Positions 41,411 through 58,879 of a stretch of DNA of 64,000 nt are shown piece by piece. The translations under genes were made by a program, and so were the position numbers. Each line of letters starts with the position of its first letter. Position 1 is the stretch's first letter. Under the pieces are notes generated by a model. That model was not told where the DNA came from and did no database searches. It saw only the letters and a program-made list of their open reading frames with translations. This DNA comes from a virus. Lineage: Duplodnaviria; Caudoviricetes. Where the stretch lies: the IMG/VR virus record IMGVR_UViG_3300035698_029580. One strand, written 5' to 3'.

Positions 41411-41952
41411 TTTATACTTTTATACCATATGCCCCTGATAAAACACATGATTTAGGCTCTACTTATAATCATTATATGACATTAATAAAAGAAGATGATT
41501 GGGCATGTTTTGTTGATCATGATGCAATGTTTACTACTTCTTCTTGGTATGAACAACTTGAAGATATTGTAAGCTCAACTAAATATGGTTTATTAACAAC
41601 TATAACAAATAGAATTTTACATTCTTATCAACAAGTACCAGGTATTTCTAGATATAAACGTAATCATGATATTCAGTTACATAGACAAATAGGTAAAATG
41701 AGGCAGGAAAAATATGGAAATCAAATACAAGAATCTCCAGGAGCCATTGGAGGAGTTGTACTTTTAATTAGGAAAAAAGTATGGCAAGAAGTAGGCGGGT
41801 TTAGAATTCATAAATTATATACTGTAGATAAGGATTTTTGTGGTAGAATTTTAAAAAACGGTTATAAAATAGGTATAATGCTGGGAGTATATATTTACCA
41901 TTGGAGGAGAGCGGCTTTAAATGATTCCTATAGCCTTGAGAAACTACAATAG
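41407..41952 (+). CDS. GT-A (GT2-like) glycosyltransferase
   Basis: FVDHD, VWQEVGGF, D.DF, YIYH. Confidence 0.8.
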   Translation: MIYTFIPYAPDKTHDLGSTYNHYMTLIKEDDWACFVDHDAMFTTSSWYEQLEDIVSSTKYGLLTTITNRILHSYQQVPGISRYKRNHDIQLHRQIGKMRQEKYGNQIQESPGAIGGVVLLIRKKVWQEVGGFRIHKLYTVDKDFCGRILKNGYKIGIMLGVYIYHWRRAALNDSYSLEKLQ

Positions 41953-42739: not shown

Positions 42740-43485
42740 ATAATGAAACAGATTATTTATCAGACAGTCGTAAAATAAGAAAAAAATATTCACATTTTCT
42801 TAAAGGTAAAAAGGTAGTTATTATATGTAATTCTCCTCATGTAGTTGGTACAAATGAAGGAAAGAAAATAGAACAATATGATGTGGTAGTAAGATTAAAT
42901 GGTGGTTATATTATAGTTACAGATAAATATAGAAAAGATGTCGGGAGAAGAACGGATATTTTATACTCTGGGTTACATTCTTCAACTGATCTTTATAGCC
43001 AAGATAGTTTAGAATATTTAATAAAAAAAGGCAAATGTAAATGGATGTCAGTTACTGCTCCTTTAGTAACGAGAATAAAAAAATGGCAAAGAAATAACAA
43101 AGAAAGATTACCTTTACATATTATAAACTTAGACACCAGATTATTATTAAATAAAAAAATGAAATTGGGGAAAAAGAGTCCTACTTCAGGAATTACATCT
43201 TTATATGATTTACTTACTTTTGATATTAAAAAACTCTATGTTAAGGGCTTTACATTCTACCGAGATATTCCTAAACATATATATTCTGGGTATATAAAAG
43301 GAAAGCATTATGTAGATTGTTTAGTTGACAGTAATGCTTATTCCTTTCCTAGAAGTCATTCTCCCGTAAGAGAGTTTCATTTTTTTAGAAAGATTTGCGA
43401 AAAAGATAAAAGAGTTGTTTGCGATGATGTTTTAGGGCAATTATTACTATATTACAAAGACGAAAAGTGTGATGTTGAAATTTGA
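42736..43485 (+). CDS. GT29 sialyltransferase-like protein
   Basis: sialylmotif L-like (VVIICNS...GKKIEQYDVVVRLN...DVGRRT), S-like (PTSG...GF) and VS-like (HSPVRE). Confidence 0.75.
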   Translation: MNNETDYLSDSRKIRKKYSHFLKGKKVVIICNSPHVVGTNEGKKIEQYDVVVRLNGGYIIVTDKYRKDVGRRTDILYSGLHSSTDLYSQDSLEYLIKKGKCKWMSVTAPLVTRIKKWQRNNKERLPLHIINLDTRLLLNKKMKLGKKSPTSGITSLYDLLTFDIKKLYVKGFTFYRDIPKHIYSGYIKGKHYVDCLVDSNAYSFPRSHSPVREFHFFRKICEKDKRVVCDDVLGQLLLYYKDEKCDVEI

Positions 43486-44083
43486 TATAGATGTAAGAAA
43501 AATAAGACATAGAACACATATTATCAACTATTTTATAAATAAATACTTATATCAATCATATTTAGAAATTGGAGTATCTAATCCTAAAGCAAACTTTAAT
43601 CAAATAAATTGCAAACTTAAAGAAGGGATAGATCCAAAAGGTAAATGTATATTTCCAATGACATCTGATGATTTTTTTGCCTTGTTACCTAAAGAAAAAA
43701 AATATGATATAATTTTCATAGATGGATTGCATTTAGAAGAACAAGTGTTGAAAGATGTTTATAATTCTTTGTGCCATTTAAATGAGATGGGAACAATTTT
43801 ACTTCATGACTGCAATCCTAATTCTAAAGAACTTCAAGAAGAAATACCTGTTATAAAATCATGGTGTGGCACAGTATGGAAAGCTTTTGCTAAATTAAGA
43901 ATGACAAGAAAAGATTTGCATATGTTTGTGATTGATACTGATTATGGAATAGGTATTATAAGAAGAGGAAAACAAAAGTTGATTAAAAAAATGTCTGATG
44001 ATGATTTAAATTATAGATTTTTAAATATAAATAGAAGACATGTTTTGAATTTAATATCTGTACAAGAATTTTTAAAAGGATGA
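43469..44083 (+). CDS. class I SAM methyltransferase (Methyltransf_24-like)
   Basis: YLEIGV, DIIFIDGLH, LLHDCNP, GTVWK. Confidence 0.85.
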   Translation: MMLKFDIDVRKIRHRTHIINYFINKYLYQSYLEIGVSNPKANFNQINCKLKEGIDPKGKCIFPMTSDDFFALLPKEKKYDIIFIDGLHLEEQVLKDVYNSLCHLNEMGTILLHDCNPNSKELQEEIPVIKSWCGTVWKAFAKLRMTRKDLHMFVIDTDYGIGIIRRGKQKLIKKMSDDDLNYRFLNINRRHVLNLISVQEFLKG

Positions 44084-44094
44084 TATAAAACAAA

Positions 44095-45081
44095 ATGAAA
44101 AATAATTATGCCATTTTTGTTTCTTCTAATAACCAATATCTATCATTTCTAAATACTTTATTAAATAGCTTAGATATTAATAATATTGATGTAGATGTTT
44201 TTCTGATCCATAATGATATTAATCAAGATTATCTTTCTTCTCTTGCAAAATTTAATTTTCCAATTAATATAATTCCTATAGAAAGATCTGATTTTAATAT
44301 TGATCCATCTAATGAACATAATAATAACCTTTATCTGAAACAAACTAGGTTCAAATATATACGAGAGTATGGAACATTATATAAAGCCATTTGCATGTTG
44401 GACGCAGATATGTTTGTTACAACTCCTAATTTTATGAATTTGTTTCATTTGGTTGAAAATACAAATCTAATGATCGGATGTAATGAAAGATTTAAATGGA
44501 CCTTTGATGAGAGATTTACTTTTGAAGAAAAATCTTTATTTACCAATTCTATAAAAGCTTATAAATTTCATTGTTCTGTGCCTATTATATTTGATTTAAA
44601 TAAGTGGTTAGATGTTTTTGATTTTTATAATAAAATTGCATTTAACACATTTGAGAAAAAAAGAGATGGAGAAATAAAATCAGCAGGAGATATCTATTGT
44701 TGGAATATGTCTGTATATAAAAATAATAGACAAGATGATATAATTTTATTTCCTATGGAAACTATGACACAAGTTCATTATACTAATCTTTTTCCTTGGA
44801 GTAATATTAAGAAGATTAATGATAAATGGTGGACTGCTAATGGAGATGAAGTATTTACTATTCATGGACGAGTGGGAAGAAAAGCATGGTATGATGGACA
44901 TTTAAATAATTTAGAAAAAAATAAAGAAAAATATTCTGAAAAATATTTTAATCAAATAAAAAATATTGCAATTAATACTATGAGATCAATTCAAAGAGAA
45001 TGGTATTATTTAAATTTTTCTCATAAATTAAATCTTTATAATTTCTTGCCCGTTGATGATTATTGGGAAACACTTAAATAA
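44095..45081 (+). CDS. GT8-like glycosyltransferase
   Basis: L..LLNSL, R, MLDADM (DxD), IH. Confidence 0.7.
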   Translation: MKNNYAIFVSSNNQYLSFLNTLLNSLDINNIDVDVFLIHNDINQDYLSSLAKFNFPINIIPIERSDFNIDPSNEHNNNLYLKQTRFKYIREYGTLYKAICMLDADMFVTTPNFMNLFHLVENTNLMIGCNERFKWTFDERFTFEEKSLFTNSIKAYKFHCSVPIIFDLNKWLDVFDFYNKIAFNTFEKKRDGEIKSAGDIYCWNMSVYKNNRQDDIILFPMETMTQVHYTNLFPWSNIKKINDKWWTANGDEVFTIHGRVGRKAWYDGHLNNLEKNKEKYSEKYFNQIKNIAINTMRSIQREWYYLNFSHKLNLYNFLPVDDYWETLK

Positions 45082-45090
45082 GTTCTGAAA

Positions 45091-45123
45091 TTTTCCAGCA
45101 TTATATATTTCCCCATATATAGT
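45091..45123 (+). promoter_or_regulatory. dispersed copy of the TTTTCCAGCATTA early promoter heading the 45-55.8 kb operon
   Basis: exact 13-mer plus TATAGT. Confidence 0.75.
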
Positions 45124-45252
45124 TAGTTGGAAAGGCTTAAATATGGTTTTTTATTGTAAAAAACGGGTTTTTCTGATTTTTAGAAGGAATATTTCCTTGT
45201 TGTTTGGGAAAAATTCGGTATAATGTGATTATTTCACAGAAGGAGTAAAACA

Positions 45253-46059
45253 ATGAGTCAGAGAGTAGAACTACTGGTAATCGACCCTCAGACGGATTTT
45301 TGTGATCCAGACAAGGGGTCTTTGTATGTCAAGGGAGCAGAAGAAGACATGCAGAGATTAGCAAAATTGGTTGATTTAAGAGGTAATAAATTTAAGGAAA
45401 TACATGTTACCTTGGATTGTCATAATTCTGTAGATGTAGCTCATCCTTGTTTTTGGGTTGATAGTAAGGGTTCTAATCCCGCTCCATTTACAATTATTTC
45501 AGCTAATGATGTAAAAGATGGAAAATGGATACCTGTCTTTCCCCAGTATAGGGAGAGAATGGTACAGTATGTAGAAGGACTGGAAAATAGTGGTAGGTAT
45601 CCTCTATGTGTTTGGCCGCCGCACTGTCTGATTGGTAGTGTTGGTAATGCAGTATATCCTCCTTTGTATGAATCTCTTTTGAAGTGGGAGAGTCTTAGAC
45701 CGTGGAATGTAAGATATGTCAGTAAGGGTTCTAATCCTTTTACTGAACATTATTCTGCTGTTAAAGCTGAGGTACCTGATACTGCTGATGCTTCTACTCA
45801 ACTTAATGTTGATTTTATTAATACTTTGATGAAAGCTGATGTAGTAGCAATTGCTGGAGAAGCCGGGAGTCATTGTTTGGCGAATACGGTTCGTGATATC
45901 GCCTCGGGATTCGGAGATGATAGTGCTATTAGCAAATTAGTTCTTCTTGAAGATGCCACATCTCCTGTTTCTGGTTTTGAGCAATTTCAGATTGATTTTA
46001 TTAAAGAAATGAAGGCCAAAGGTATGAAAACTTCAACTACTGTAGATTTTTTGGCATAA
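45253..46059 (+). CDS. pncA: nicotinamidase (isochorismatase/cysteine hydrolase family)
   Basis: IDPQTDF, TLDCH, WPPHC, KG..EHYS and GEAGSHC catalytic motifs. Confidence 0.8.
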   Translation: MSQRVELLVIDPQTDFCDPDKGSLYVKGAEEDMQRLAKLVDLRGNKFKEIHVTLDCHNSVDVAHPCFWVDSKGSNPAPFTIISANDVKDGKWIPVFPQYRERMVQYVEGLENSGRYPLCVWPPHCLIGSVGNAVYPPLYESLLKWESLRPWNVRYVSKGSNPFTEHYSAVKAEVPDTADASTQLNVDFINTLMKADVVAIAGEAGSHCLANTVRDIASGFGDDSAISKLVLLEDATSPVSGFEQFQIDFIKEMKAKGMKTSTTVDFLA

Positions 46060-46078
46060 GCTGAAGAAAGGATAAAAA

Positions 46079-46831
46079 ATGAACTCTAAAAATTTGCAAA
46101 GTAATAATTTGGAATCTCATTCTCTTTCTACTGGTAGTTTTGGCTATTCAGCAGCAGGATTAGAAGATTTGGGAGCCACAGAATATACCTTGGTTACTAT
46201 TGTGGTAGACACAAGTGGTTCTGTTGCATTTTTCAAAAAAGATATGGAAAAGGCTATTATGGAAGTAGTTAGTTCATGTAAATACTCCAAACGTTCAGAT
46301 AACTTAATGATTCGTTTTGTTACGTTTCATAATGATATGACGGAGGAACATGGATTTAAATTACTTTCAGATTGTGATGCTTCTAATTATGATGATTGTC
46401 TTATGGTAGGAGGATCAACAGCATTGTTTGATGCTTCTCAAAATAGCATTGAAGCCACAAGAGATTATGGTAAAAAACTTGTTGATAATGATTTTGATGT
46501 GAATGGTATTATTTTCATCATCACAGATGGAGATGATAATTCTTCTACTATGACTGCTGATGGAGTAAAGAAAAGTTTAGCAGAAGTTTTAAGAACTGAA
46601 GCTCTTGAATCTTTGATGACAATTTTAATTGGTGTCGGAGTTGGAGGATACCCTGGAATTCAAAAGTATTTGAATGATTTTCAAAAAGATGCTGGTTTAA
46701 CTCAATATGTCAACATCAAAGATGCTGATGAAAAATCATTAGCTAAATTAGCTCAATTTATTTCTAAATCAATTTCGTCTCAATCTAATGCTTTGGGTAG
46801 TGGCGGAGAGAGTCAACCTTTGACATTTTAA
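46079..46831 (+). CDS. von Willebrand factor A (TerY-like) protein
   Basis: MIDAS DTSGS, GSTALFDA, IITDGDDN. Confidence 0.9.
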   Translation: MNSKNLQSNNLESHSLSTGSFGYSAAGLEDLGATEYTLVTIVVDTSGSVAFFKKDMEKAIMEVVSSCKYSKRSDNLMIRFVTFHNDMTEEHGFKLLSDCDASNYDDCLMVGGSTALFDASQNSIEATRDYGKKLVDNDFDVNGIIFIITDGDDNSSTMTADGVKKSLAEVLRTEALESLMTILIGVGVGGYPGIQKYLNDFQKDAGLTQYVNIKDADEKSLAKLAQFISKSISSQSNALGSGGESQPLTF

Positions 46832-46837
46832 AAGAGA

Positions 46838-46996
46838 AGTCTTGTGGCGGAAGGGTAGACGCAGGGTGATTAGCCAGTCACCTGTTACAGTGAAGCGTTG
46901 TAGCATCGACATGCATGGCAGATATAGTTTGGCTGATTTTTATCTGTTCTGGTGCTATTCGGTAGTAGCGTGCAGGTTCGAGTCCTGCCAAGGCTT
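46838..46996 (+). tRNA. tRNA-Leu-like RNA with the anticodon arm replaced by a multi-hairpin insert of about 90 nt
   Basis: acceptor AGTCTTG/CAAGGCT, D-arm GCG-GAAGGGTAGA-CGC, long variable arm GCTATT/AGTAGC, T-arm GCAGG-TTCGAGT-CCTGC. Confidence 0.75.
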
Positions 46997-47045
46997 ATTA
47001 AATAATGTAAACTATTAATATTATATTTTGTAGAAAGGTAATAAC

Positions 47046-47957
47046 ATGTTATTTTCTACTGACTGTGCATTTAGAATTGGTTCTACTCATAAAATTTGTC
47101 AAGATTATGGTATATCTGGTACGGTTTGTGATACAGCATATGCCATAATTGCTGATGGTTGTTCTGGTTCAGATCTTTCTGAATTTGGTTCTAAATTATT
47201 GTGCAAAGCAATAGAAAATGAAATTGTAGAAGATGAGTTTCAAAATTTTACTTCTAATAACAGTGGTTATAGAATAAATTCTGAGATTAGTCTTAGCAAG
47301 GTTTTTACTACTCTTTTTGATATAGGTAATAAATTAAAAATGCCTGACTATTGGCTAGATGCAACTTTAGCCTATGCAGTTGCAAAAAAAGGTGTGGCAC
47401 AAATATATCTTTATGGAGATGGGGTTATAGTTAGGGAATGGCCTGATGGAACATTTACTGTAACTAGTGTTGAGTTTCCTTCAGGCTACCCATTTTTTCT
47501 TAATTATATAACAACATCTAATAGAAAGAGATTTGAAAAGTGGAAATCTATTCCTAATCACAAAAAAGTGGTACTTACTTATCATTTAGATAAAAAGGGA
47601 AATTTAGAAGATACAGAAGAAAAATATTATGATTTATCTTCATGTGATAACGAAAAAGATTTACCATTTGAAATGTCAATATTAGATTTTGAGAACTCAA
47701 AATTGGCATTATTTACAGATGGGATAAAAAGTTTTTTTAGAATAGCACAAACAGATACATCAAAAGTAAATGTACCAGTTTCAATGCTTGATATTATTCC
47801 TTCTTTAATGAAAATTAAAAGTTTTCAAGGACAATTCGTTAATAGGCGTTTAAACAAATTTTTACAAAAAGAAGATGTTTTACATTTTGATGATGTTACA
47901 ATGGCTGTAATTAAGATGGAAGAAAATCTATTACATTTTAATGATGTTGTAGATTAA
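47046..47957 (+). CDS. PP2C-family protein phosphatase
   Basis: G.TH..CQD, IADGCSGS, ATL, GDG, FTDG, DDVT. Confidence 0.9.
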   Translation: MLFSTDCAFRIGSTHKICQDYGISGTVCDTAYAIIADGCSGSDLSEFGSKLLCKAIENEIVEDEFQNFTSNNSGYRINSEISLSKVFTTLFDIGNKLKMPDYWLDATLAYAVAKKGVAQIYLYGDGVIVREWPDGTFTVTSVEFPSGYPFFLNYITTSNRKRFEKWKSIPNHKKVVLTYHLDKKGNLEDTEEKYYDLSSCDNEKDLPFEMSILDFENSKLALFTDGIKSFFRIAQTDTSKVNVPVSMLDIIPSLMKIKSFQGQFVNRRLNKFLQKEDVLHFDDVTMAVIKMEENLLHFNDVVD

Positions 47958-47989
47958 TGATGTTATGATGATTTTAATAAAGATGGAAG

Positions 47990-49696
47990 ATGCAGATGAA
48001 ATTAATTGTTCAGGGAAAAGGAATAGTTGATCTAGATAAAAGATATTTTCTAGATTCAGGGGGAGAAGGAAATATTTACGCTCGTAAAGGAGTCGTTTAT
48101 AAGATTTATCATGAGCCTTCTAGATGTATACAATTTGCTAAGATGCAAGAACTTTCATTGATTACTGATCCTAATGTAATCATTCCAAATAATATGCTTC
48201 TTAATAGTCGTAATAAACCCATAGGTTATACAATGAAGCATGTTAAAAATACTTTTGCTCTTTGTCAACTTTTTACAAAATCGTTTCGTGATCGTAATCA
48301 GGTTACAAACGAACAAATTGCAAAAATTGTTTTACAAATGAGACAAATGGTACATCATATTCATTCAAATAAAATACTAATTGTTGATTTGAATGAAATG
48401 AATTGTTTGGTAAGCGATGATTTTAGAACTGCTTATTTCATTGATACAGATAGCTATCAAACTCCTTCTTTTCCTGCTACTGCTATTATGGAAACAATAA
48501 GAGATAGACATTCTGATAATTTTAGTGAAGAAACAGATTGGTTTGCCTTTGGTATTGTTAGTTTTCAATTGTGGATAGGTATCCACCCATATAAAGGAAA
48601 ACATGCTACCATCAAAACTTTAGATGATAGAATGAAAGCTAATATACCTGTTTTTCATAAAGATGTTAGTTTCCCCAAGGTTTGTCAACCATTTGATATC
48701 ATACCTCAGACATTTAAAGATTGGTATAAAGCAATTTTCTATGATGGCAAAAGATTGCCTCCCCCCAAGAATATGCAGGATATTATTGTTATTACTCCTG
48801 TTAGACAGGAAATTTCTGGAACAGATAATTTTGATATAATTGAAATATTGAAATTTGATAATGATGAATATGTAGTTGATTTTTTATCAGCAAATGGAGT
48901 AAGGTCTGTTCTCACTAATAAAGCAATCTATAAGGATTATAAATGGGTTAAAAATCAGAGAGACAAGCAATCTAAAATTTGTGTTACACCACAATATAAT
49001 AGATTAATAAAAGCATCTGTGGTAAATTATCAATTACATTTATATGATGAGACATTGCAAAAACCAATTGATTTTTTAGCACAAGTTGAAAAAATAATGA
49101 CATACCAAGGAAGATTATTTGCTAAATATGAAGACAAAATTTTGGAAATAGAGTTTATAGAATTACCTAATAAAACTCTTGCTGGAGCAAAAATTATTAC
49201 TTCAGTTATGGCTCAAGCCACAAAGTTCTATGAAGGTGTGGCTATTCAGAATATACTGGGTAGTTATGTTGCTGGTATTTTTGATAAGCCATTTAATTGT
49301 TATCAGATAAATTTGGACCAATTAAATGGATATAAAATTATTAATGCCAAATACAGTGATAATATTTTAATGGTAGTTGGACAGGTTCTTTTGGGAAAAA
49401 GGTCTGGAAAATATGATAAATTTATTTATTGTTTTTCTTCTAATTTTCAAGGTTGCACTACAAGGATTATAGAAGACGTTTCGTATTTGGGAGTTAATTT
49501 TGTAGTTTTAGAAAATGGAGTTGTTGTTCATATAAGTGATGATGAGCAAATAGAAATTTTTAGCAATAAAAAAGGGCATTCTTCTTTGAAAGTGATTAAC
49601 GATCCGGTAATAGGGGAAGATATGAAACTCTATAGAGATGAAGTAAAAGTTATTTTTGTTAAAGATAATAAGTTGTTTAGAATAAAAGTGAAGTAA
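47990..49696 (+). CDS. Ser/Thr protein kinase (TerY-P triad type) with a beta-rich C-terminal domain
   Basis: GGEGNIY, YKIY, VDLNEMN, IDTDSYQ, DWFA...HPYKG. Confidence 0.9.
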   Translation: MQMKLIVQGKGIVDLDKRYFLDSGGEGNIYARKGVVYKIYHEPSRCIQFAKMQELSLITDPNVIIPNNMLLNSRNKPIGYTMKHVKNTFALCQLFTKSFRDRNQVTNEQIAKIVLQMRQMVHHIHSNKILIVDLNEMNCLVSDDFRTAYFIDTDSYQTPSFPATAIMETIRDRHSDNFSEETDWFAFGIVSFQLWIGIHPYKGKHATIKTLDDRMKANIPVFHKDVSFPKVCQPFDIIPQTFKDWYKAIFYDGKRLPPPKNMQDIIVITPVRQEISGTDNFDIIEILKFDNDEYVVDFLSANGVRSVLTNKAIYKDYKWVKNQRDKQSKICVTPQYNRLIKASVVNYQLHLYDETLQKPIDFLAQVEKIMTYQGRLFAKYEDKILEIEFIELPNKTLAGAKIITSVMAQATKFYEGVAIQNILGSYVAGIFDKPFNCYQINLDQLNGYKIINAKYSDNILMVVGQVLLGKRSGKYDKFIYCFSSNFQGCTTRIIEDVSYLGVNFVVLENGVVVHISDDEQIEIFSNKKGHSSLKVINDPVIGEDMKLYRDEVKVIFVKDNKLFRIKVK

Positions 49697-49706
49697 GGAG
49701 AATATT

Positions 49707-49970
49707 ATGGAAAATCATGTACAATTAAACAAGGATAGATATAAAATGACACCCGAACAGCGTGATTATTTGGAGCGGGCGGCGAAGATGGGGACGTTTA
49801 TGCTAGACCAACCAGGGAGTATATGGATTGGAGCAGCACTACGCGACGAGCTTGGTTACATCAAGGATCAAACGATAGTTGAATGGTCTCCGGGGGGGCA
49901 CCAGTACCGCCTTACCCCTGCAGGTCGTATAGCATTGGAAAACGAGACAGAAAGTGAAAAGGACAATTAA
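49707..49970 (+). CDS. small winged-helix-like hypothetical protein with higher GC
   Basis: L...GYI...YRLTPAGR; AAGGAG RBS. Confidence 0.65.
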   Translation: MENHVQLNKDRYKMTPEQRDYLERAAKMGTFMLDQPGSIWIGAALRDELGYIKDQTIVEWSPGGHQYRLTPAGRIALENETESEKDN

Positions 49971-49971
49971 A

Positions 49972-51021
49972 ATGAAAATATTAGAAAATTCAACTATTAA
50001 AAGAGTAAAAAGTGAAAAGTATAATTATATTTTTTCTAAAAAAACTGGTTCTTTTTTAAGATGGGGAAAAACTTTAGAAGATGATCCTGAGATGTCTCCT
50101 GCAGGTCCAGAACTCGCGGATATTGAAATAACTACAATATGTCATGGAGTAAAAGGTAAACTTTGTGATTGTTGTTATAAAGCAAATAATCCAAATGGCA
50201 AGAATATGAGTTTTGAAACATTTAAAAAATTATTTCATTCTTTGCCCAAAAATCTTACTCAAATTGCGTTCGGATCTGGATCCTCAGCTATGGAAAATCC
50301 TGATTTATTTAAAATGATGGCTTATTGTCGGGAAAATGATTATAATTATGTTGTTCCTAATATAACTGTTTCTGATATTACTGAAGAAACTGCCAAAAAA
50401 CTAGCAAAGATTTGTGGTGCAGTTGCCGTCAGTAAATATGATGATAAAAATGTTTGTTATGATATAGTTAAGATGTTGACTGACAATGGGTTATCACAAA
50501 CAAATATTCATATTTGTATTTGTGAAGAAAATTATGAACAGACTTTAGAGGCATGTAAGGATTATTTAACTGATCCTCGATTAAAAAAACTTAAATCCTT
50601 TGTATTTCTCTCTCTCAAGCAAAAAGGAAGAGGAATAAAACTTACACCTTTAAGTATGGAAAAATTTAAGGAATTGGTGAATTTTTGTATTGACAATAAT
50701 GTTCCAATAGGTTTTGATTCATGTTCAGCTATGAAGTTTCTTTCTTCAGTGAAAAATCATGAAAAATTTGATCAATTTGAAATGTGTAGCGAGCCGTGTG
50801 AATCTTCGATTTTTTCGGCGTATTTTAACGTCGATGCCGAATTTTTTCCTTGTAGTTTTACTGAAGGCACTTCTGGGTGGGAAGAAGGTTTGCCTGTTAA
50901 TGGTGATTTTATAAATGATATTTGGCAGCATCCCAAAACAATAGAATTTAGAAATAAATTATTAAAAACAATTGATAATAATTCGTTTGGATGTAGAGAG
51001 TGTCCTATTTTTAAAATTTGA
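49972..51021 (+). CDS. radical SAM enzyme with SPASM/twitch domain
   Basis: DIEITTIC-x7-C-DC-CY (CX7CX2C variant); C-terminal CES...FFPCSF...W....FR...CRECP. Confidence 0.88.
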   Translation: MKILENSTIKRVKSEKYNYIFSKKTGSFLRWGKTLEDDPEMSPAGPELADIEITTICHGVKGKLCDCCYKANNPNGKNMSFETFKKLFHSLPKNLTQIAFGSGSSAMENPDLFKMMAYCRENDYNYVVPNITVSDITEETAKKLAKICGAVAVSKYDDKNVCYDIVKMLTDNGLSQTNIHICICEENYEQTLEACKDYLTDPRLKKLKSFVFLSLKQKGRGIKLTPLSMEKFKELVNFCIDNNVPIGFDSCSAMKFLSSVKNHEKFDQFEMCSEPCESSIFSAYFNVDAEFFPCSFTEGTSGWEEGLPVNGDFINDIWQHPKTIEFRNKLLKTIDNNSFGCRECPIFKI

Positions 51022-51031
51022 GGTAATAATT

Positions 51032-51136
51032 ATGAAAATTAGAAATGGTTTTGTATCTAATAGTAGTTCTACTGCATTTGTTATAGAGAATCGAACAAAT
51101 GACACAAAATATCTACTAAATTTTGTGAGGCATTGA
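51032..51136 (+). CDS. 34-aa GFVSNSS-leader peptide #1, below the ORF-track cutoff
   Basis: MKIRNGFVSNSSSTAFVIENRTNDTKYLLNFVRH*; GAGG RBS. Confidence 0.7.
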   Translation: MKIRNGFVSNSSSTAFVIENRTNDTKYLLNFVRH

Positions 51137-51146
51137 GGTAAATTAA

Positions 51147-51380
51147 ATGTGTGAAACATGGTATAAAAGTTATTGCTCTAAATGTAATACTATTAATTGG
51201 ATTTGCAATGGAGACACATCAGATTTATCAGGTGTAGACATTGATGGATATAAATGCTGGAAATGTGGAAATATAAAATATTTTGGAGATGAAGAACAAT
51301 ATGAAATTGAGAGAAATATTAATGAGTGGACAAATAAAGAAGATATTTATTGGGAGTTAGGATTAGAATTTCCAAAGTAA
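51147..51380 (+). CDS. Zn-ribbon protein, paralog of 38113-38352
   Basis: WYKSYCSKCNTINW...CWKC. Confidence 0.75.
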   Translation: MCETWYKSYCSKCNTINWICNGDTSDLSGVDIDGYKCWKCGNIKYFGDEEQYEIERNINEWTNKEDIYWELGLEFPK

Positions 51381-51392
51381 AAAGGAATAATC

Positions 51393-51740
51393 ATGAAAAT
51401 TAGAAATGGTTTCGTATCAAATAGTAGTTCTACCGCATTTATTATTACTAATGATTCTCGAGAAGTAAAAACTCTTGTAGATTTTGTTACAGAAAACCCT
51501 CAATTAATAGAAAAGTTTAAAGAACAATATGGGTGGGATAAAGATGATGATCGTTTTTCTCAAGGAAATTTAATAGTTTCTGCAGAGGAAAATAATATAG
51601 AATTTCCTCCTGGGGAAAATAAATATTGTGTTTTTGGAGATGAACAAGACACTCTTATTGGTCAGGTATTTGATTATATTTTACGAGATGGTGGAAATTC
51701 TGAAAGTTTTGGTTGGAGATTTTGTGAATATTTGAGGTGA
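51393..51740 (+). CDS. GFVSNSS-leader protein #2
   Basis: starts MKIRNGFVSNSSSTAFII. Confidence 0.85.
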   Translation: MKIRNGFVSNSSSTAFIITNDSREVKTLVDFVTENPQLIEKFKEQYGWDKDDDRFSQGNLIVSAEENNIEFPPGENKYCVFGDEQDTLIGQVFDYILRDGGNSESFGWRFCEYLR

Positions 51741-51744
51741 TATT

Positions 51745-52113
51745 ATGAAAATCAGAAATGGATTTGTTTCAAATAGTAGTTCTTCTAGTTTTATGATTAG
51801 TAAATCTGTTCTTTCTCAAGAACAGATAAGTGCTATTCATAACCATATGAATTATGCAAAAAATAATTTTCCAAATATGGTTGATAAATATTCTGGGAAA
51901 AATCAATATATTTGGTCATGGAATATTTTAGAAAATGATGAGCATATGTTTGGATTTGTTGATATGAATAACTTTGATATGAGGTATTTTTTAGAAAAAA
52001 TTGACATACTCGATAAGGATATTATTCTTAAGAGAGTATATGGCAATACATACGGAATGTCTTATCACGAAAAGATAAGTTTTATTACCAAAGAACTAAA
52101 AAAAGTTGATTAA
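51745..52113 (+). CDS. GFVSNSS-leader protein #3
   Basis: starts MKIRNGFVSNSSSSSFMI; body paralogous to #6. Confidence 0.85.
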   Translation: MKIRNGFVSNSSSSSFMISKSVLSQEQISAIHNHMNYAKNNFPNMVDKYSGKNQYIWSWNILENDEHMFGFVDMNNFDMRYFLEKIDILDKDIILKRVYGNTYGMSYHEKISFITKELKKVD

Positions 52114-52143
52114 CAATTATTTTAAATATTAGAAAGTGAAAAA

Positions 52144-52794
52144 ATGTTTAAAAAGATAAAATTATTACTAGTAATTTTTTTATTTTCTCTTCCTTCTATG
52201 GCTCTTACTGTTTCTGATGGACAATATTTTGAGACATTAGAATTCTACAACAATGATGTTGTTGACGTTTTAGGGGGAACAATAGACAACTTGACCCTCT
52301 ATGAACAAAGTCTTGCTAATGTAATAAATACAGAAGGAGATTTTCTTTCTGATGGAGCTATATGGGAAATAAATGCTTTTGATAATTCTCACATAAGTTT
52401 ATCAGGTGGCAATATTTATGAGATGAATTTATATGGGGATAGCATTACTGATGTTATAGGTGGCAGAGTAACCCTTCTAAATGTAAGTGGAAATGCAGAA
52501 TTATATTTATCTGCAGGATTATACAGAGGAACAGTGTTGGATTTAAAAGACGACACAGCACAAATTCACATGTATTGTACAGATTATAGTTTTAATCAAT
52601 TATTCCAACAGTTTAGTTTATCAGGAACATGGTCTAATGGAGATAGATTTTATATAGGTGTTGATAATGATACTTATAATAATATAAATTTTCACGTTAT
52701 AGAAAGCAATGATATTCCAGAGCCCATTATATTGTGTTTTCTTATTTTAGGAATTATAACAATTTTACAAATGGATAAATATCATGAAATTTAG
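52144..52794 (+). CDS. PEP-CTERM sorting-domain protein
   Basis: signal peptide, repeated xxSGG beta motifs, C-terminal IPEP plus TM helix. Confidence 0.8.
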   Translation: MFKKIKLLLVIFLFSLPSMALTVSDGQYFETLEFYNNDVVDVLGGTIDNLTLYEQSLANVINTEGDFLSDGAIWEINAFDNSHISLSGGNIYEMNLYGDSITDVIGGRVTLLNVSGNAELYLSAGLYRGTVLDLKDDTAQIHMYCTDYSFNQLFQQFSLSGTWSNGDRFYIGVDNDTYNNINFHVIESNDIPEPIILCFLILGIITILQMDKYHEI

Positions 52795-53161
52795 AAATGG
52801 ATTTGTATCAAATAGTAGTTCTAGTAGTTTTCTTATAGTTGGAGTTGAAGACGAAAATTTAGTGGAAAAATTAAAAGCTGCTTCTTGTGGAGATATGTCA
52901 GAACGATATGTGGAATCAGATGGTAGTATACGTTATGAGACTATGGAACATGGAGTAATACATGCGGGATTGATCAATTTTTATGGAAGTTATATTCTTG
53001 AAGATTGTTATTTATCTGGAATGCCCATAGAAGATTTATTGGAAACAATGAATTTAGCAGAAATTAGGTTGCGTTTTCAAAAATGTGTTAAAGAAAAATA
53101 CAATATAAATATAGATATGTCTGAAATATGTCTACATTATGGCGAAGTGTCTGATGAATAA
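52784..53161 (+). CDS. GFVSNSS-leader protein #4
   Basis: starts MKFRNGFVSNSSSSSFLIVG. Confidence 0.85.
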   Translation: MKFRNGFVSNSSSSSFLIVGVEDENLVEKLKAASCGDMSERYVESDGSIRYETMEHGVIHAGLINFYGSYILEDCYLSGMPIEDLLETMNLAEIRLRFQKCVKEKYNINIDMSEICLHYGEVSDE

Positions 53162-53181
53162 TTATTTAATAGGAGAAAAAA

Positions 53182-53640
53182 ATGAAAATTAGAAATGGTT
53201 TTGTAAGTAATAGTAGTTCTTCTTCCTTTGTTATTATTGGTCATCAAATAAAAATGGGAGGTAATTATGAAAAAATTTGTCGTATTTTTTTACCAGAAGA
53301 TTTTATTGAAAAAGAAATGGATAGTTGGGATTATAATAAAATGGAGGATAAGCATCAGAAAGAAAATTTTTGGGCAGAGATTTTTTATGAGAATTTAAGT
53401 GATATAAAAAATGAATTTGTGTGCTATTCATCATATAGTATACTCGGACATAGTGAAGATTGGGAGTTTTTTGGAAAACTATTATATTATAAATATGACG
53501 ATCCAGGAATTTATGATGATATTGAAGTGAAGGCTCCTCTTTCTGAAATTATTGAGGGCATAAGAAAAGAAGTTGAGAGATTGGGAATGCAAGACCAAGT
53601 AAGTGAAATAATGATTTATAGTGGAGTTAAATCAGATTAA
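53182..53640 (+). CDS. GFVSNSS-leader protein #5
   Basis: starts MKIRNGFVSNSSSSSFVIIG. Confidence 0.85.
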   Translation: MKIRNGFVSNSSSSSFVIIGHQIKMGGNYEKICRIFLPEDFIEKEMDSWDYNKMEDKHQKENFWAEIFYENLSDIKNEFVCYSSYSILGHSEDWEFFGKLLYYKYDDPGIYDDIEVKAPLSEIIEGIRKEVERLGMQDQVSEIMIYSGVKSD

Positions 53641-53641
53641 A

Positions 53642-53935
53642 ATGAAAATTAGAAATGGTTTTGTTTCAAATAGCAGTTCTTCTAGTTTTGTTATTAAAAA
53701 ATATGTTTTAAGTAAAAAACAAATAGATGCTATTTATGATCATATAAATTATGCAAAAAATAATTTTTCAGAAATGGAAGAAACAAGTGATTTAAATGAT
53801 GGATCTGCATGGGTAATAGTAGAAGGTGAAAAAAAAATATATTGCAGCACATTTATGAATAATTTTGATTTACATGAGTTTTTAATAAAAATAGGTGTTG
53901 ATGATAAAGATATTCGTGACTTGGAAGTGTTTTAA
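53642..53935 (+). CDS. GFVSNSS-leader protein #6 (start corrected)
   Basis: starts MKIRNGFVSNSSSSSFVIK. Confidence 0.85.
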   Translation: MKIRNGFVSNSSSSSFVIKKYVLSKKQIDAIYDHINYAKNNFSEMEETSDLNDGSAWVIVEGEKKIYCSTFMNNFDLHEFLIKIGVDDKDIRDLEVF

Positions 53936-53951
53936 TCTAAAGGAGAAATCA

Positions 53952-54299
53952 ATGAAATTTAGACAAGGTTTTGTATTAAATAGTGGTACAACTAGGGTTG
54001 ATGTTTATGGGACTATTATAAAGGCTGAAGATATGGAAGAAATTCTTGTAAAAAAAAATATTGTACAAAAAAATTCTGAAGGTGATCGTGATATATATGA
54101 TTTTCTTAATGACTTAACAGAAAAAGAAAAAATAGTTTGGGATCATCAAGAAGAACCTGAGGGAGAATATTATATTGGATTAAAAATAACAGAAATGGAA
54201 GACAATGAAACTCTTGACCAATTTAAAAAACGAATAGGAAACAAAATAGAAGAAATATTCGGTGAAAAATTATATGTTGAATTAATTCTTTCCACTTAA
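53952..54299 (+). CDS. GFVSNSS-leader protein #7 with a degenerate leader (start corrected)
   Basis: starts MKFRQGFVLNSGTTRV; AAGGAG RBS; body paralogous to #8 and #9. Confidence 0.85.
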   Translation: MKFRQGFVLNSGTTRVDVYGTIIKAEDMEEILVKKNIVQKNSEGDRDIYDFLNDLTEKEKIVWDHQEEPEGEYYIGLKITEMEDNETLDQFKKRIGNKIEEIFGEKLYVELILST

Positions 54300-54321
54300 T
54301 CATTGTTAAAGGAGATTTAAA

Positions 54322-54690
54322 ATGAAATTTAGACAAGGATTTGTATCAAACAGTAGTACCACGAGCTTTTGTATTTGTGGAATTAGTACAAATGAAGAAC
54401 AGTTAGAAGATTGGTTAAAAGATAAAGTTTCCGAAGAGGAGAAAGAAGAAGATGATTATGAGGTATATGATATAGTCGAAGAACTTTGTGACAAAGAAGG
54501 TCTTTCAGTGCATGCGGAACCCGATAGTTATTATTCTTATTGGATAGGACTTGATATACAAAAATTGGATGATAATGAAACGTTGAAAGATTTTAAAAAC
54601 AAAACAAAAGAAAAACTTAAAAAAATATTTGGAGATAATATTGATAAAAAAATCATTAATATTATTGAAAAAGCTTGGCATGATGGTTAA
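54322..54690 (+). CDS. GFVSNSS-leader protein #8
   Basis: starts MKFRQGFVSNSSTTSFCICGI. Confidence 0.85.
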   Translation: MKFRQGFVSNSSTTSFCICGISTNEEQLEDWLKDKVSEEEKEEDDYEVYDIVEELCDKEGLSVHAEPDSYYSYWIGLDIQKLDDNETLKDFKNKTKEKLKKIFGDNIDKKIINIIEKAWHDG

Positions 54691-54720
54691 AACATATGAT
54701 ATTCTTTAAAGGAGAAATTA

Positions 54721-55071
54721 ATGAAATTTAGACAAGGTTTTGTATCAAACAGTAGTACCACGAGCTTTTGTATTTGTGGAATTTGTCTAGATAGAAAAAA
54801 TATGGAAGAATTAATAGAAGAAAAAAATGTTGATGGAAAAGATATAAATGAGAGATTGTTGGAAAAACTTTGTAAGGCAGAGGGACTTGCCAGTATTGCT
54901 GATCCAGAAGATGAGTATTATTATATTGGAATTAATGTAGAAGATATGGATGAGGATAAGACAATAAGAGATGTTAAAAAAGAAGCAAAGGAAAAAATAA
55001 AAAAATTGTTCGGAGATAATGCTGATAAACATAATGTTAGAGTCATTACTGATGGTTGGTATAATGGTTGA
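54721..55071 (+). CDS. GFVSNSS-leader protein #9
   Basis: starts MKFRQGFVSNSSTTSFCICGI. Confidence 0.85.
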   Translation: MKFRQGFVSNSSTTSFCICGICLDRKNMEELIEEKNVDGKDINERLLEKLCKAEGLASIADPEDEYYYIGINVEDMDEDKTIRDVKKEAKEKIKKLFGDNADKHNVRVITDGWYNG

Positions 55072-55121
55072 TTGTAAGAGTTTTAACTAAGTATTTTATT
55101 TATTTTTGAAAAGGAAAAGTT

Positions 55122-55817
55122 ATGAGTGGAAAAGTGCAAGTTCATCATTTAATTATTTTGGACAAAAGTAGTTCAATGCTAGAAGTTTGTAGTGAAACTA
55201 TTGATGGATGTAATAAACAATTTGATGTAATTCGTAAAATGTCAGAAGAAAATCCAGAACAAGAACATTTTGTTTCTATGGTCATATTTAGCTATTCTCA
55301 TAAAATAGATATGGAAACAATATGGATGAAAAAATCAGATGAAGTGGAAAATATTAATGAAGAAAGTTATGTTCCTCAGGGATACACGGCTTTATTTGAT
55401 GCCATAGGTAAAGGCGTGACAAAACTACAAACAGAAATACAGGAACAATTAAATAATAGAGGTGCTAGAGTTGTTGTTACAATATTGACAGATGGTTATG
55501 AAAATAATTCTCAAGAATTTACTGGTAAGAAGATTAAATCTTTAATAGATGAACATCAAAAAGGTGGTTTATGGACAATTACGATGGCTGGATGTACTGA
55601 TGATGTATTCAATGTAGCAGATAATCTTAATATTTGCAGAGGAAATGTTCTTAAATATGATATGGGAGCAGTAGGAACTACTAATGCTTTTGCTAAAATG
55701 GCAAAGAGTCGTTGCATGTATTGTTCTTCCATAGGGACAGATGTAGAATTAAAAGCGACATCAAGTTATTATTCTCAAGATGAAGAAAAGAAAGATGAAG
55801 AAAAGAAAGATGATTAA
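55122..55817 (+). CDS. von Willebrand factor A domain protein
   Basis: DKSSS MIDAS, GYTALFDAIG, ILTDGYENNSQE. Confidence 0.9.
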   Translation: MSGKVQVHHLIILDKSSSMLEVCSETIDGCNKQFDVIRKMSEENPEQEHFVSMVIFSYSHKIDMETIWMKKSDEVENINEESYVPQGYTALFDAIGKGVTKLQTEIQEQLNNRGARVVVTILTDGYENNSQEFTGKKIKSLIDEHQKGGLWTITMAGCTDDVFNVADNLNICRGNVLKYDMGAVGTTNAFAKMAKSRCMYCSSIGTDVELKATSSYYSQDEEKKDEEKKDD

Positions 55818-56074
55818 AATTTTCTAATTGGACATCTAAAGTGGGGGTCCTGGAATATAATTTCTAGGACCTTTCCACTTTTTTTACATCTTTTTTTAAC
55901 TGTTTTTTGTGGAGGTCTAGTTGTTTTTGTCATAAAGTAGATTTTATCAACATGAGGACAACTTTTACATATTTTTGGTCTAATATCTAGAAGTTTAATT
56001 CTTTTGTCTTTTAGTATTGGTTTAGCACTTTTATTTTTTATTGCAGAAGCTCTTTTTCCACAGCCACATCCCAT
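55814..56074 (-). CDS. small basic Cys-rich protein
   Basis: MGCGCGK...CKSCP...C...CP. Confidence 0.7.
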   Translation of the reverse strand: MGCGCGKRASAIKNKSAKPILKDKRIKLLDIRPKICKSCPHVDKIYFMTKTTRPPQKTVKKRCKKSGKVLEIIFQDPHFRCPIRKF

Positions 56075-56850
56075 TATCTAACTCCTCTCATTTTTTGGAT
56101 TAGGTTATTTCTTCTAATTCTTCCTACTTGATGATACCATTTTGAATCTACCATTTCATCGGCAGCTTTTTGGAAATCTCTTCTTATTAAAGCTTGTCTA
56201 AATCTTTTAAACTGTCTTAATCTATTTGGTCCCATAGCAAATGCCATATCAATAATAACTTGTTGAACAGCATCATCATATGTTTCAAAATTGGGTAAAA
56301 AAGAATGTGCTATATCGGAGGCTTCGAAAAAGGTATATTCAAATAATTTATTTATTTGTTCGTCTGTAAGACCAACTTTTCCATTAATAATGTCATTATA
56401 ATTTAGTCCAAAACTTTCTATTTTTTGTTTAGCATCTGGTCTATTTAACATATATCCTATTCCTATTGTTTTGTTTCCTAATGGACCGGGATATACAAAA
56501 TTTCTTCTTCCCTCATGCTGAGATATCATATCTCTAGTTTTTTGAATAAAATTATTTTGATCTGTATTTTTTCTTTCTACGGAAGTTCCTTGGGGATTTT
56601 CTTGTGTTGCAGGAATATTTTGTTGTGTTATTTCTTGTGTTTGTTGAGGGGTTGTATTTTCTTGTTTTTTTATTTCTTGGACACCTTGTATTACTGTTTG
56701 GGGAGATTGTTTAAAAAGATCTTTAACTTCTAGAATTCCTATTCCCCATAGACCTGCCAAACCTAATAAAGCTGTTAGTCCAGTCATTTGAACAAATCTA
56801 TTCCATCTAAACTCTTCTTCTGCTATTTTTGTTTGATTGTACCAATTCAT
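56074..56850 (-). CDS. T4-type lysozyme (GH24) with MNWY tag and N-terminal hydrophobic segment
   Basis: HEG...Y...G..TIGIG, DMAF.MG, AADEMVDSKWYHQVG. Confidence 0.85.
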   Translation of the reverse strand: MNWYNQTKIAEEEFRWNRFVQMTGLTALLGLAGLWGIGILEVKDLFKQSPQTVIQGVQEIKKQENTTPQQTQEITQQNIPATQENPQGTSVERKNTDQNNFIQKTRDMISQHEGRRNFVYPGPLGNKTIGIGYMLNRPDAKQKIESFGLNYNDIINGKVGLTDEQINKLFEYTFFEASDIAHSFLPNFETYDDAVQQVIIDMAFAMGPNRLRQFKRFRQALIRRDFQKAADEMVDSKWYHQVGRIRRNNLIQKMRGVR

Positions 56851-56851
56851 A

Positions 56852-57214
56852 TTAAATTGTTGTTTCTCCTATATATCCACCTTCGGCAGAAAAAGTTATT
56901 ATTTTAATATTATTCCCAAATTCTTTTTTTAATTTATTAATAATAACATTGGGAATATCCCAATACCATTCATAAGGAGTCATAATGGATACCTCCATAG
57001 TGTTCGGATCATATCTACCTCGGAATTTTTTTTCGAATGCTTTTTCTAAGCCTCCTTCCATCATATTTCCATGTCCTTCAATATACCATCCTTCTTCGAC
57101 TTTAAAATTACTACCATCGGGATTACTCATCCATAACATATTTTCATTACCAGAGCCAACTCCAGAATGCCCTATATCTCCGTAATTTTTTTGTGCTAAT
57201 TTATACCAATTCAT
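56852..57214 (-). CDS. MNWY-tagged protein (Y..IGH...GRYD family; start corrected)
   Basis: starts MNWYKLAQ; paralog of 60122 and 60498. Confidence 0.8.
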   Translation of the reverse strand: MNWYKLAQKNYGDIGHSGVGSGNENMLWMSNPDGSNFKVEEGWYIEGHGNMMEGGLEKAFEKKFRGRYDPNTMEVSIMTPYEWYWDIPNVIINKLKKEFGNNIKIITFSAEGGYIGETTI

Positions 57215-57855
57215 TTTCTTATCCATAATGTTAAATCGTCTTTAACCTCTTCCCAGTGAGGTATATAAATTTTTTCTATTTCTTTCCATTCTGAATCAAG
57301 AAGATTATAAAATTGGTCATTAGCTGTACATCCTTTCCATTCTCCCACCAAAATTAGTTTATTTCCTTCAAAAAATGCTAATGCTTCATATGCCATGGGA
57401 CTACCGCAGGGAGGCCAAACCATCATTAATGTATCAAAATGACCATATTTTTCAATAGCATCTAAATGATCCATTTTCTCTATGTCTGTAAATCTTTTAC
57501 TCTCAGGCTTATAATATTTTTCATTTTGTCTTTCTATAACACCTAAATCTGTAGCTGTTACAGATATTCCTTCGTCTCTCATTAATTTAGCCCAGAGCCC
57601 ATACCCTGACCCTATTTCTAATACATTGCCTTGTTCTACGAAAATTTTTATTTTTTCGATTGCTTCTTTATCTGGGACTCCCCATCCATATTCTTTTATA
57701 TATCTGTTTCTTCTCAACCATGGACGAGTAAGATCAGAGTTCCAAAAGTTAAGTTCTTCTTCTGAAGGTTCAGATGCATATTCTTTACCTTCAGGCCCAA
57801 ATTTATTTAAATCTTCATAAATATCAGCTATTTTTTTATTTTTATACCAATTCAT
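57211..57855 (-). CDS. MNWY-tagged class I SAM methyltransferase
   Basis: VLEIGSGYGLWA, ATD, WPP, VGE..GCTA. Confidence 0.85.
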   Translation of the reverse strand: MNWYKNKKIADIYEDLNKFGPEGKEYASEPSEEELNFWNSDLTRPWLRRNRYIKEYGWGVPDKEAIEKIKIFVEQGNVLEIGSGYGLWAKLMRDEGISVTATDLGVIERQNEKYYKPESKRFTDIEKMDHLDAIEKYGHFDTLMMVWPPCGSPMAYEALAFFEGNKLILVGEWKGCTANDQFYNLLDSEWKEIEKIYIPHWEEVKDDLTLWIRK

Positions 57856-58876: not shown

Positions 58877-58879
58877 TAT

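Follow-up and report, generated by a model that had tools for sequence, protein, structure and literature searches.

We analysed a string of genes in the window, a stretch of 64,000 nt from the virus record IMGVR_UViG_3300035698_029580 (Caudoviricetes), and all coordinates given below without a locus number are positions in this window. From 45253 to 55817 every gene lies on the + strand, in the order nicotinamidase, von Willebrand factor A (vWA) protein 1, a tRNA-like element, a PP2C-type phosphatase, a Ser/Thr kinase, an 87-aa open reading frame (ORF), a radical S-adenosylmethionine (radical-SAM) enzyme, an array of small proteins that share an N-terminal peptide (the tag), and a second vWA protein (Table 1). 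The reading that we consider likely is that the string forms one probable transcription unit, which joins two modules with separate evolutionary histories and a sporadic second vWA gene. Four genes, for nicotinamidase, vWA1, PP2C and kinase, make up the cassette of module A (45253-49696), which is a conserved unit in huge phages and in bacterial chromosomes. Module B (49954-55071) comprises the radical-SAM enzyme and the tag array. Across relatives, module A is linked to genes of nicotinamide adenine dinucleotide (NAD+) salvage, the enzyme of module B is linked to tag genes, and catalytic residues are conserved. Module A is probably a phospho-switch, similar to the TerY-P type, that is tied to NAD+ recycling, and module B is probably a system for the modification of protein tags. 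No description of either module was found in the literature searched, and a survey of jumbo phages (PMC7824862) mentions neither.

Separable modules in one gene string

The promoter-like 13-mer TTTTCCAGCATTA occurs in 19 exact copies in the window, all of them on the + strand and intergenic, with an A/T-rich -10-like box 10-15 nt further on. When up to two mismatches are allowed, 39 matches are found, compared to 5.5 ± 2.4 in shuffled sequences. Fifteen of the 19 exact copies fall inside the first 6.3 kb of the window, ahead of short genes, and only the copy at 45091 stands ahead of the gene string, 10 nt past the stop codon of the preceding gene, which belongs to a glycosyltransferase cluster. 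There is no further + strand copy up to 55817. Just 5' of the first start codon, a sigma-70-like TTGTTG-16-TATAAT can be read from the sequence at 45197-45224; a scan with the sigma-70 consensus was uninformative (62 sites compared to 70.8 in shuffles). Gaps within the string range from -17 to 50 nt, with one exception of 214 nt that contains the tRNA-like element. Beyond 55817 the next genes lie on the - strand, and the terminator-like hairpin that follows the last gene overlaps with the 3' portion of a convergent ORF on that strand. An earlier annotation of the region, made from the sequence alone and referred to here as the first-pass annotation, had described a single promoter-like copy at the head of 10.7 kb of co-oriented, tightly packed genes, and this is confirmed by the positions of the 13-mer, the gaps and the strands; the role of the 13-mer as an early promoter, which that annotation also named, is putative. 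The gene string is thus probably one transcription unit. As a whole, its 10.7 kb gave no megablast match to 50,697 phage records, and no Rfam family was found over 44500-56500 at E ≤ 1.

To follow the two modules in relatives, we assembled 74 loci from IMG/VR with a kinase 27-49% identical to that of the window (the kinase set, mostly on contigs of 50-620 kb) and, by a reciprocal scan, 80 loci with a radical-SAM enzyme at 43-54% identity (the radical-SAM set); neighbourhoods extend to 10 kb. Alignment-based scans were needed for these sets, as scans of viral contigs with the single kinase or radical-SAM protein returned nothing. A radical-SAM gene lies within 10 kb in 6/74 kinase loci and tags only in 2 more, giving 8/74 in total. 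At least one tag gene is present in 59/80 radical-SAM loci, always on the strand of the enzyme and mostly directly downstream of it, and a kinase is present in only two of the 80, on the same contigs as two loci already counted in the kinase set (L007 and L010). At larger distances, 15 large contigs bearing the quartet of module A were searched, and two of them contain a radical-SAM match (E ≤ 1e-20), more than 100 kb from the kinase in record coordinates; ~270 kb separate the kinase from the radical-SAM gene on one contig of 350 kb (L014, L092). Five phage genomes with the radical-SAM enzyme that are at least 91% complete, including RB16 and KP15, contain no kinase. Conversely, a locus whose kinase is 50% identical to that of the window (L004) has the cassette, with no radical-SAM enzyme of the window's family and no tags downstream.

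Because each module occurs mostly without the other, modules A and B are separable and have different distributions. The first-pass annotation had suggested that the array, as a series of leaders, and the triad of vWA, PP2C and kinase could be halves of one system, and linkage between triad and array across relatives had been set beforehand as a test of this claim. The two are unlinked in most relatives, in both sets of loci and in whole genomes that carry either alone, and the claim is not upheld. The junction between A and B is lineage-specific, found in near relatives only, and would give the modules shared expression timing rather than a shared mechanism. Even between close relatives this part of the string changes: L241, with a kinase 83% and a radical-SAM enzyme 87% identical to those of the window, differs in the junction gene, and its array has gained and lost genes. 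At the position of the 87-aa ORF, L006 and L241 carry a 73-aa ORF (33% identical to that of the window) and L003 carries a DUF2059 protein. As the modules are separable, each can be studied alone, and the lineage of the window is one place to probe cross-talk between them; a composite A-B system, if true, has not been seen elsewhere.

The nicotinamidase cassette and its company

All four genes of module A are present in 67/74 kinase loci, and the order nicotinamidase-vWA1-PP2C-kinase is kept in 63/74. Three further loci have the pairs swapped as units, with PP2C and kinase preceding nicotinamidase and vWA, and the vWA1 gene adjoins the nicotinamidase gene in nearly all loci. Among 80 bacterial and archaeal loci, from metagenome-assembled genomes (MAGs) and complete chromosomes, the compact cassette is found in 44 and tags in none; its hosts include complete Capsulimonadaceae chromosomes and large contigs of Myxococcota and Spirochaetota. 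Homologues of the kinase number 1451 at E ≤ 0.001, and the best 120 of them, on contigs of up to 548 kb, are nearly all full-length. Full-length homologues also occur on three contigs binned into MAGs of Micrarchaeota, Thermoplasmatales and Promethearchaeota (L195, L208 and L216, respectively), of which L208 and L216 carry all four cassette genes; these could be phage contigs assigned to the wrong bin, or genuine copies from archaea or their viruses.

The residues expected of each activity are retained. In the nicotinamidase, the catalytic D11, K158 and C208 and the metal-site D55, H57, H64 and H124 are at least 90% conserved across 63 orthologues, W121-P122-x-H124-C125 is also conserved, and in a PDB comparison the N-terminal motif and the WPPHC stretch match those of Mycobacterium tuberculosis PncA (3pl1). 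Profile matches of this protein are faint: the best, NCBIfam PRK11609 (3.3e-6), reaches 27 bits against a cut-off of 174, Pfam gives no match at 0.01, and a bacterial orthologue (L172) barely reaches Pfam Isochorismatase (27.2 compared to 27). In vWA1, the residues of the metal-ion-dependent adhesion site (MIDAS), D44-x-S46-x-S48, T114 and D150, show at least 90% conservation among orthologues; the metal-binding D37/G38, D225 and D282/D283 of the PP2C protein are conserved in its orthologues, and K38, E54, D133, N138 and D152 of the kinase are invariant in 23 homologues. Downstream of its catalytic domain, the kinase protein continues into a part (residues 270-568) that resembles Reg_prop/WD40/LVIVD propellers, with template-modelling (TM) scores of 0.62-0.69.

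The triad has a constant companion in the nicotinamidase, and it commonly stands among genes of NAD+ salvage. PncB is found within 10 kb in 23/74 phage loci and 16/80 bacterial loci, often between cassette genes, and NadE within 10 kb in 19/74 phage loci, in varying slots. The 6.2-Mb Capsulimonadaceae chromosome OZ244065.1 carries the cassette (L172:5390-11015) followed directly by nicotinate phosphoribosyltransferase (PncB), and its flanks, with genes for a flavin reductase and a sigma factor and one that is ligase-like, are cellular rather than prophage in character. In the window itself, nadE lies at 62289-63059 and an NAD-dependent ligase at 34304-36379; no pncB was found there. The company of nicotinamidase, pncB and nadE therefore points to NAD+ salvage, and not to the tag array, as the setting of the cassette.

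Two known systems invite comparison. The TerY-P triad (Anantharaman et al. 2012 and Gao et al. 2020, cited in PMC11090510) combines a TerY-like vWA protein with PP2C and a Ser/Thr kinase, and the C-terminus of its kinase bears a zinc ribbon in the classical form or an OB-fold in the anti-phage TerY-P-like form (PMC11090510). Like it, module A has three adjacent genes with the same domains, intact MIDAS and catalytic residues, and a predicted phosphorylation switch. Unlike it, the module A kinase is fused to a beta-propeller, with neither zinc ribbon nor OB-fold; a PncA-like nicotinamidase belongs to the set as a constant fourth gene; NAD-salvage genes, rather than restriction or Ter genes, stand nearby; and the whole is a conserved gene set of huge phages. 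The first-pass annotation had named the trio a TerY-P triad; the three domains and their intact residues agree with this and the kinase architecture differs; by its domain make-up, we file module A as a TerY-P-like variant and not as a TerY-P member. The second comparison is Preiss-Handler salvage (PncA, PncB and NadE). Here the likeness lies in the first gene, with the PncA catalytic triad and metal site, and in pncB and nadE, which stand in or beside the cassette in many relatives, nadE also in the window. The differences are that the nicotinamidase has 268 aa, compared to 186-216 aa in solved PncA chains, that it falls below the cut-offs of curated hidden Markov models (HMMs), and that vWA, PP2C and kinase always accompany it.

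In the mechanism that we propose for module A, the propeller-kinase and the PP2C phosphatase would form a reversible phospho-switch, which, through the vWA adaptor, would gate the nicotinamidase or the salvage route that it feeds. A phage could in this way keep NAD+ up, for instance for its own NAD-dependent ligase or against host defences that deplete NAD. The phage trio of vWA, PP2C and kinase is part of a four-gene cassette anchored by nicotinamidase rather than a free-standing TerY-P defence module. This provides a metabolic context for a TerY-P-like phospho-switch, and bears on how large phages might maintain NAD+ against NAD-depleting defences.

The radical-SAM enzyme and the tagged proteins

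The only strong match of the module B enzyme is phrog_7293, a family without assigned function. The protein is 45% identical to genes annotated as 'radical SAM' in RB16, KP15, Miro and 170 other phage records, and the Atlas clusters of its relatives are viral, with SPASM or Radical_SAM Pfam matches in 25-65% of members. Within the putative cluster motif, no variation is seen at C71 and C74, conservation of the first Cys is at least 90%, and the orthologues in L010 and L049 show a canonical C-x3-C-x2-C at the same place. Towards the C-terminus there are four invariant Cys (C257, C282, C300 and C350) and, in a six-sequence alignment, the conserved C347, fewer than in the seven-Cys SPASM motif. 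A phmmer search of PDB sequences with the enzyme gave no match at E ≤ 1. We also noted that in L009 (17093-19723), on a huge-phage contig, the orthologous gene is interrupted by ~1.1 kb, and its second piece starts with a stretch whose last residues, HNILVHN-C, immediately precede the CYK cluster motif; the insertion resembles an intein lodged where the Fe-S cluster would bind.

The array consists of nine full tag genes and one that is truncated; their N-terminal tag reads MK[IV]RxGFVSNSSSSSF. In the window, the nine full proteins (97-152 aa) fall into at least six unrelated body families. The distinct tag proteins collected across all loci number 197, with a median length of 123 aa (range 24-390 aa). 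They hardly vary over positions 1-18 and have no conserved position after that; their bodies form 73 BLAST clusters. A search with the whole length of tag protein 4 (53182-53640) found seven matches, all close orthologues, because the 18-residue tag is all that is shared. The codons of the tag vary through synonymous changes and use both serine codon families, and selection therefore acts on the peptide, not the DNA. The tag offers five to seven serines. In AlphaFold2 (AF2) models of tag proteins 2 and 7, residues 1-11 are disordered (below 50 in pLDDT, the predicted local distance difference test) and the first strand begins at about residue 13. A Foldseek search of the PDB with the model of the protein at 54322-54690 found nothing at E ≤ 0.001, only generic alpha/beta folds.

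Other genes of the array vary in their spread. The first 33 residues of the tag-gene remnant at 51032-51136 are 76% identical to the beginning of an intact tag gene, coding for 160 aa, that occupies the equivalent position in L241. Homologues of the small zinc-ribbon protein adjoin radical-SAM genes in L009, L010 and L241, and in L004 a zinc-ribbon look-alike, seen by eye and unscored, follows a different radical-SAM gene. The untagged protein at 52144-52794 gave no match in HMM searches; its orthologue (L241:5869-6507, 83% identical, the pair being 212-216 aa long) ends in PEP, a hydrophobic stretch and NRKK. L241 holds two further genes that are absent from the window, one for a protein with sigma-70 region 2, immediately downstream of the radical-SAM gene (L241:2778-3371) and one for a second, different radical-SAM enzyme inside the tag array (L241:4866-5855).

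The enzyme most likely recognises and modifies the tag, as its linkage to tag genes suggests. A complex prediction for the enzyme and a tag protein gave weak support, with a score of 0.47 compared to 0.02 for the best of three controls, at least 48% of contacts agreeing between runs and a pLDDT of at least 64 for the partner. In the benchmark for these scores, 58 of 80 solved complexes reach the mark, as do 2 of 110 mismatched pairs; scores of 0.60 or less include only 7 of those 80 solved complexes and both passing mismatches. A glycyl-radical-type reading of the tag was dropped since the Arg-Gly spacing differs (R-x-G-F in the tag, compared to R-V-x-G-[FWY]).

Among known systems, those of ribosomally synthesised and post-translationally modified peptides (RiPPs) that use radical-SAM/SPASM or twitch enzymes (streptide, sactipeptide, ranthipeptide) likewise place one enzyme with C-terminal auxiliary Cys beside an array that shares only a short peptide. 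Module B differs in that the shared peptide sits at the extreme N-terminus and spans ~18 residues, that the variable parts are folded domains of 80-370 residues rather than short cores, and that library scans found no peptidase or exporter in the operon. It further differs in occurring mainly in phages and in the lack of a match to a solved radical-SAM protein at E ≤ 1. The anaerobic sulfatase-maturating enzyme (anSME), which acts on Ser or Cys of whole proteins, offers another likeness, as the substrates in module B would be folded and the target is serine-rich. We propose that the radical-SAM enzyme would bind the flexible tag and modify it as a RiPP-type maturase does, here on whole small proteins. 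With nine genes and at least six body families, the window is another rich example of a module of radical-SAM enzyme and serine tag that is widespread in large phages.

Competing explanations and other features of the region

Phospho-Ser chemistry is found in class III and IV lanthipeptide synthetases, and it has been offered as the comparison for a reading in which the whole string is one integrated system, with kinase and PP2C acting on the tag serines, to prime them for the radical-SAM enzyme or with the tags as decoys, and two vWA proteins bracketing the set. We regard this as highly improbable. It gains from several observations that weigh against our own reading of the string as two modules with separate histories. 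The kinase gene, the 87-aa ORF and the radical-SAM gene share one orientation and are 10 nt apart or overlapping, because of which the three are almost surely co-transcribed here. The junction is kept in L006 and L241 (kinase 83-84% identical) and in L007 and L010 (49%), and it exists at a distance in L008 and L009, where ~5-8 kb of other genes separate the cassette from the radical-SAM gene. Elsewhere, tags and radical-SAM gene stand upstream of the cassette (L049/L050), or tags alone stand beside it (L029/L030). Such proximity is commoner than random placement in a 300-500-kb genome would give, which leaves room for a functional affinity between the modules. Also to be counted against our reading are the curated radical-SAM models, which the enzyme does not reach (no Pfam match at 0.01; NCBIfam NirJ2 and TIGR04053 at 18-20 bits compared to cut-offs of 395-500), its cluster motif, which in the window is C-x8-C-x2-C and not CX3CX2C, and the fact that gene neighbourhood is the one line of evidence suggesting phospho-control of NAD+ salvage. 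For the integrated system speak, in addition, the serines on a disordered N-terminus and the weak match of the kinase domain to LanL/LanKC. Against it, 66/74 kinase loci have neither tags nor radical-SAM gene, 78/80 radical-SAM loci lack the kinase, near-complete genomes carry either module alone and bacterial cassettes have no tags. Phages that lack the kinase keep the poly-Ser run just as invariant. The LanL/LanKC matches in NCBIfam come from the generic kinase core, at ~25 bits compared to cut-offs of 575-650, and were not taken as evidence of lanthipeptide-like chemistry; no lyase domain is present. Finally, vWA2 is no close paralogue of vWA1 and is the regular companion of neither module. 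There is a very slim chance that kinase and PP2C have been recruited, in this lineage, to the serine run of the tag, for phospho-priming or gating of its modification, so that NAD+ status would control the maturation of small proteins.

Other roles are conceivable for each module. Huge phages often carry conflict systems (PMC7824862), and module A may be a conflict module of the TerY-P type, serving superinfection exclusion, inter-phage conflict or host manipulation, with the link to NAD an effect of a shared accessory position. It has the three domains of TerY-P, TerY-P-like modules act as stand-alone anti-phage systems (PMC11090510, citing Gao et al. 2020), and in PADLOC the kinase weakly matches the defence kinase PD-T4-6 (1e-6) as well as the MkoA and mad6 kinases. 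We nevertheless judge this unlikely. None of eight scanned proteins, triad included, matched a TerY-P model of PADLOC at E ≤ 0.1, with vWA1 and PP2C matching nothing at that threshold, in a library whose TerY-P content was unchecked. The kinase bears a beta-propeller instead of the zinc ribbon or OB-fold of described TerY-P forms, the nicotinamidase is fixed as fourth member, and pncB or nadE stand inside the cassette in several loci, with pncB following it on a bacterial chromosome among housekeeping flanks. For module B, the tag may be a sorting signal for capsid packaging, injection or secretion, and the enzyme may merely share the region. The internal proteins of T4 provide the model, as their capsid-targeting sequence is a short conserved N-terminal peptide on unrelated proteins encoded in tandem. 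The tag is likewise short, invariant, N-terminal and carried by many unrelated bodies, its residues 1-11 are disordered, and the neighbouring - strand genes show a second N-terminal family, MNWYK. Yet the tag has no sequence likeness to the T4 signal, no link to a prohead protease was seen, and there is instead a strong link to the radical-SAM enzyme, with tag genes on the same strand within 10 kb in 59/80 of its loci, from T4-like to huge phages; the complex prediction, weak as its support is (0.47 compared to 0.02), also places the tag protein on the enzyme. Sorting in place of modification is accordingly quite unlikely, although the two are not mutually exclusive, and a tag modified by the enzyme could still be a sorting signal.

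Table 1. Features of the gene string and its boundaries, by position in the window.
Feature	Positions	Strand	Remarks
Promoter-like 13-mer TTTTCCAGCATTA	45091-45103	+	Sole copy ahead of the gene string
PncA-like nicotinamidase (isochorismatase fold)	45253-46059	+	First gene of module A; 268 aa
vWA protein 1, complete MIDAS	46079-46831	+	Pfam VWA 2.9e-5
tRNA-like element, 71-nt insert in anticodon region	46837-46997	+	ARAGORN with introns allowed
PP2C-type Ser/Thr phosphatase	47046-47957	+	Pfam PP2C_2 1.5e-9
Ser/Thr kinase (residues ~1-265) with C-terminal beta-propeller-like domain (~270-568)	47990-49696	+	Pfam Pkinase 1.1e-8
87-aa ORF between the modules	49707-49970	+	No family match; varies among relatives
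Radical-SAM/SPASM-like enzyme (module B)	49954-51021	+	phrog_7293 3.4e-102; ATG at 49972 is a possible start
34-codon tag-gene remnant	51032-51136	+	Tag, then stop
Small zinc-ribbon protein	51147-51380	+	Zn_ribbon_TiaS 6.7e-4 (below cut-off)
Tag protein 1, 115 aa	51393-51740	+	N-terminal tag; phrog_7397 matches residues 1-28 only
Tag protein 2, 122 aa, body family 0	51745-52113	+	AF2 pLDDT 79
Untagged 216-aa protein inside the array	52144-52794	+	Signal peptide; IPEP and hydrophobic C-terminal tail, PEP-CTERM-like by eye
Tag protein 3, 125 aa	52784-53161	+	Body is a singleton
Tag protein 4, 152 aa	53182-53640	+	Tag gene
Tag protein 5, 97 aa, body family 0	53642-53935	+	Tag gene
Tag protein 6, 115 aa, body family 1	53952-54299	+	Degenerate tag MKFRQGFVLNSGTTRV
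Tag protein 7, 122 aa, body family 1	54322-54690	+	AF2 pLDDT 81
Tag protein 8, 116 aa, body family 1	54721-55071	+	Paralogue of the gene at 54322
vWA protein 2, complete DxSxS MIDAS start	55122-55817	+	Pfam VWA 2.1e-6; phrog_7371 2.5e-30; last gene
Terminator-like hairpin, 13-bp stem and T-run	55843-55874	+	3' of the last gene; putative role

The second vWA gene is a sporadic third component. Its product is 29% identical to vWA1 over 59 residues (E 0.007), and in profile searches it was found in 6/74 kinase loci, 2/80 radical-SAM loci and 0/80 bacterial loci. It closes the array in the window, L007 and L241, so that the arrangement noticed earlier, a vWA gene near each end of the string, holds for the window and its lineage and is not general among relatives.

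The gap between vWA1 and the PP2C gene contains what had been noted as an odd tRNA. When introns are allowed, ARAGORN calls this element and one more in the window, at 192-336, and none in five shuffled windows. The inserts of both are 68-71 nt long and lie in the anticodon region, and the element at 46837-46997 has good acceptor, D and T arms. Default ARAGORN calls neither element, Rfam has no match at 46837-46997, the RNA fold of the gap (46832-47045) is no more stable than that of shuffles (z -0.11), and the element was not found in 240 related loci. The call thus stands only with introns allowed, and the anticodon assignments of the two elements, Asn att and Ile tat, are doubtful.

Further genes lie on either side of the string. 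Those at 39903-45081 share its strand, form a separate unit that stops 10 nt short of the 13-mer, and resemble methyltransferases and glycosyltransferases (Methyltransf_24 at 43469-44083). On the - strand, 56074-59617 holds consecutive convergent genes (lysozyme-like, methyltransferase-like and others), the products of which all start with MNWYK or MNWYN and make up a second family of unrelated bodies with a shared N-terminal peptide.

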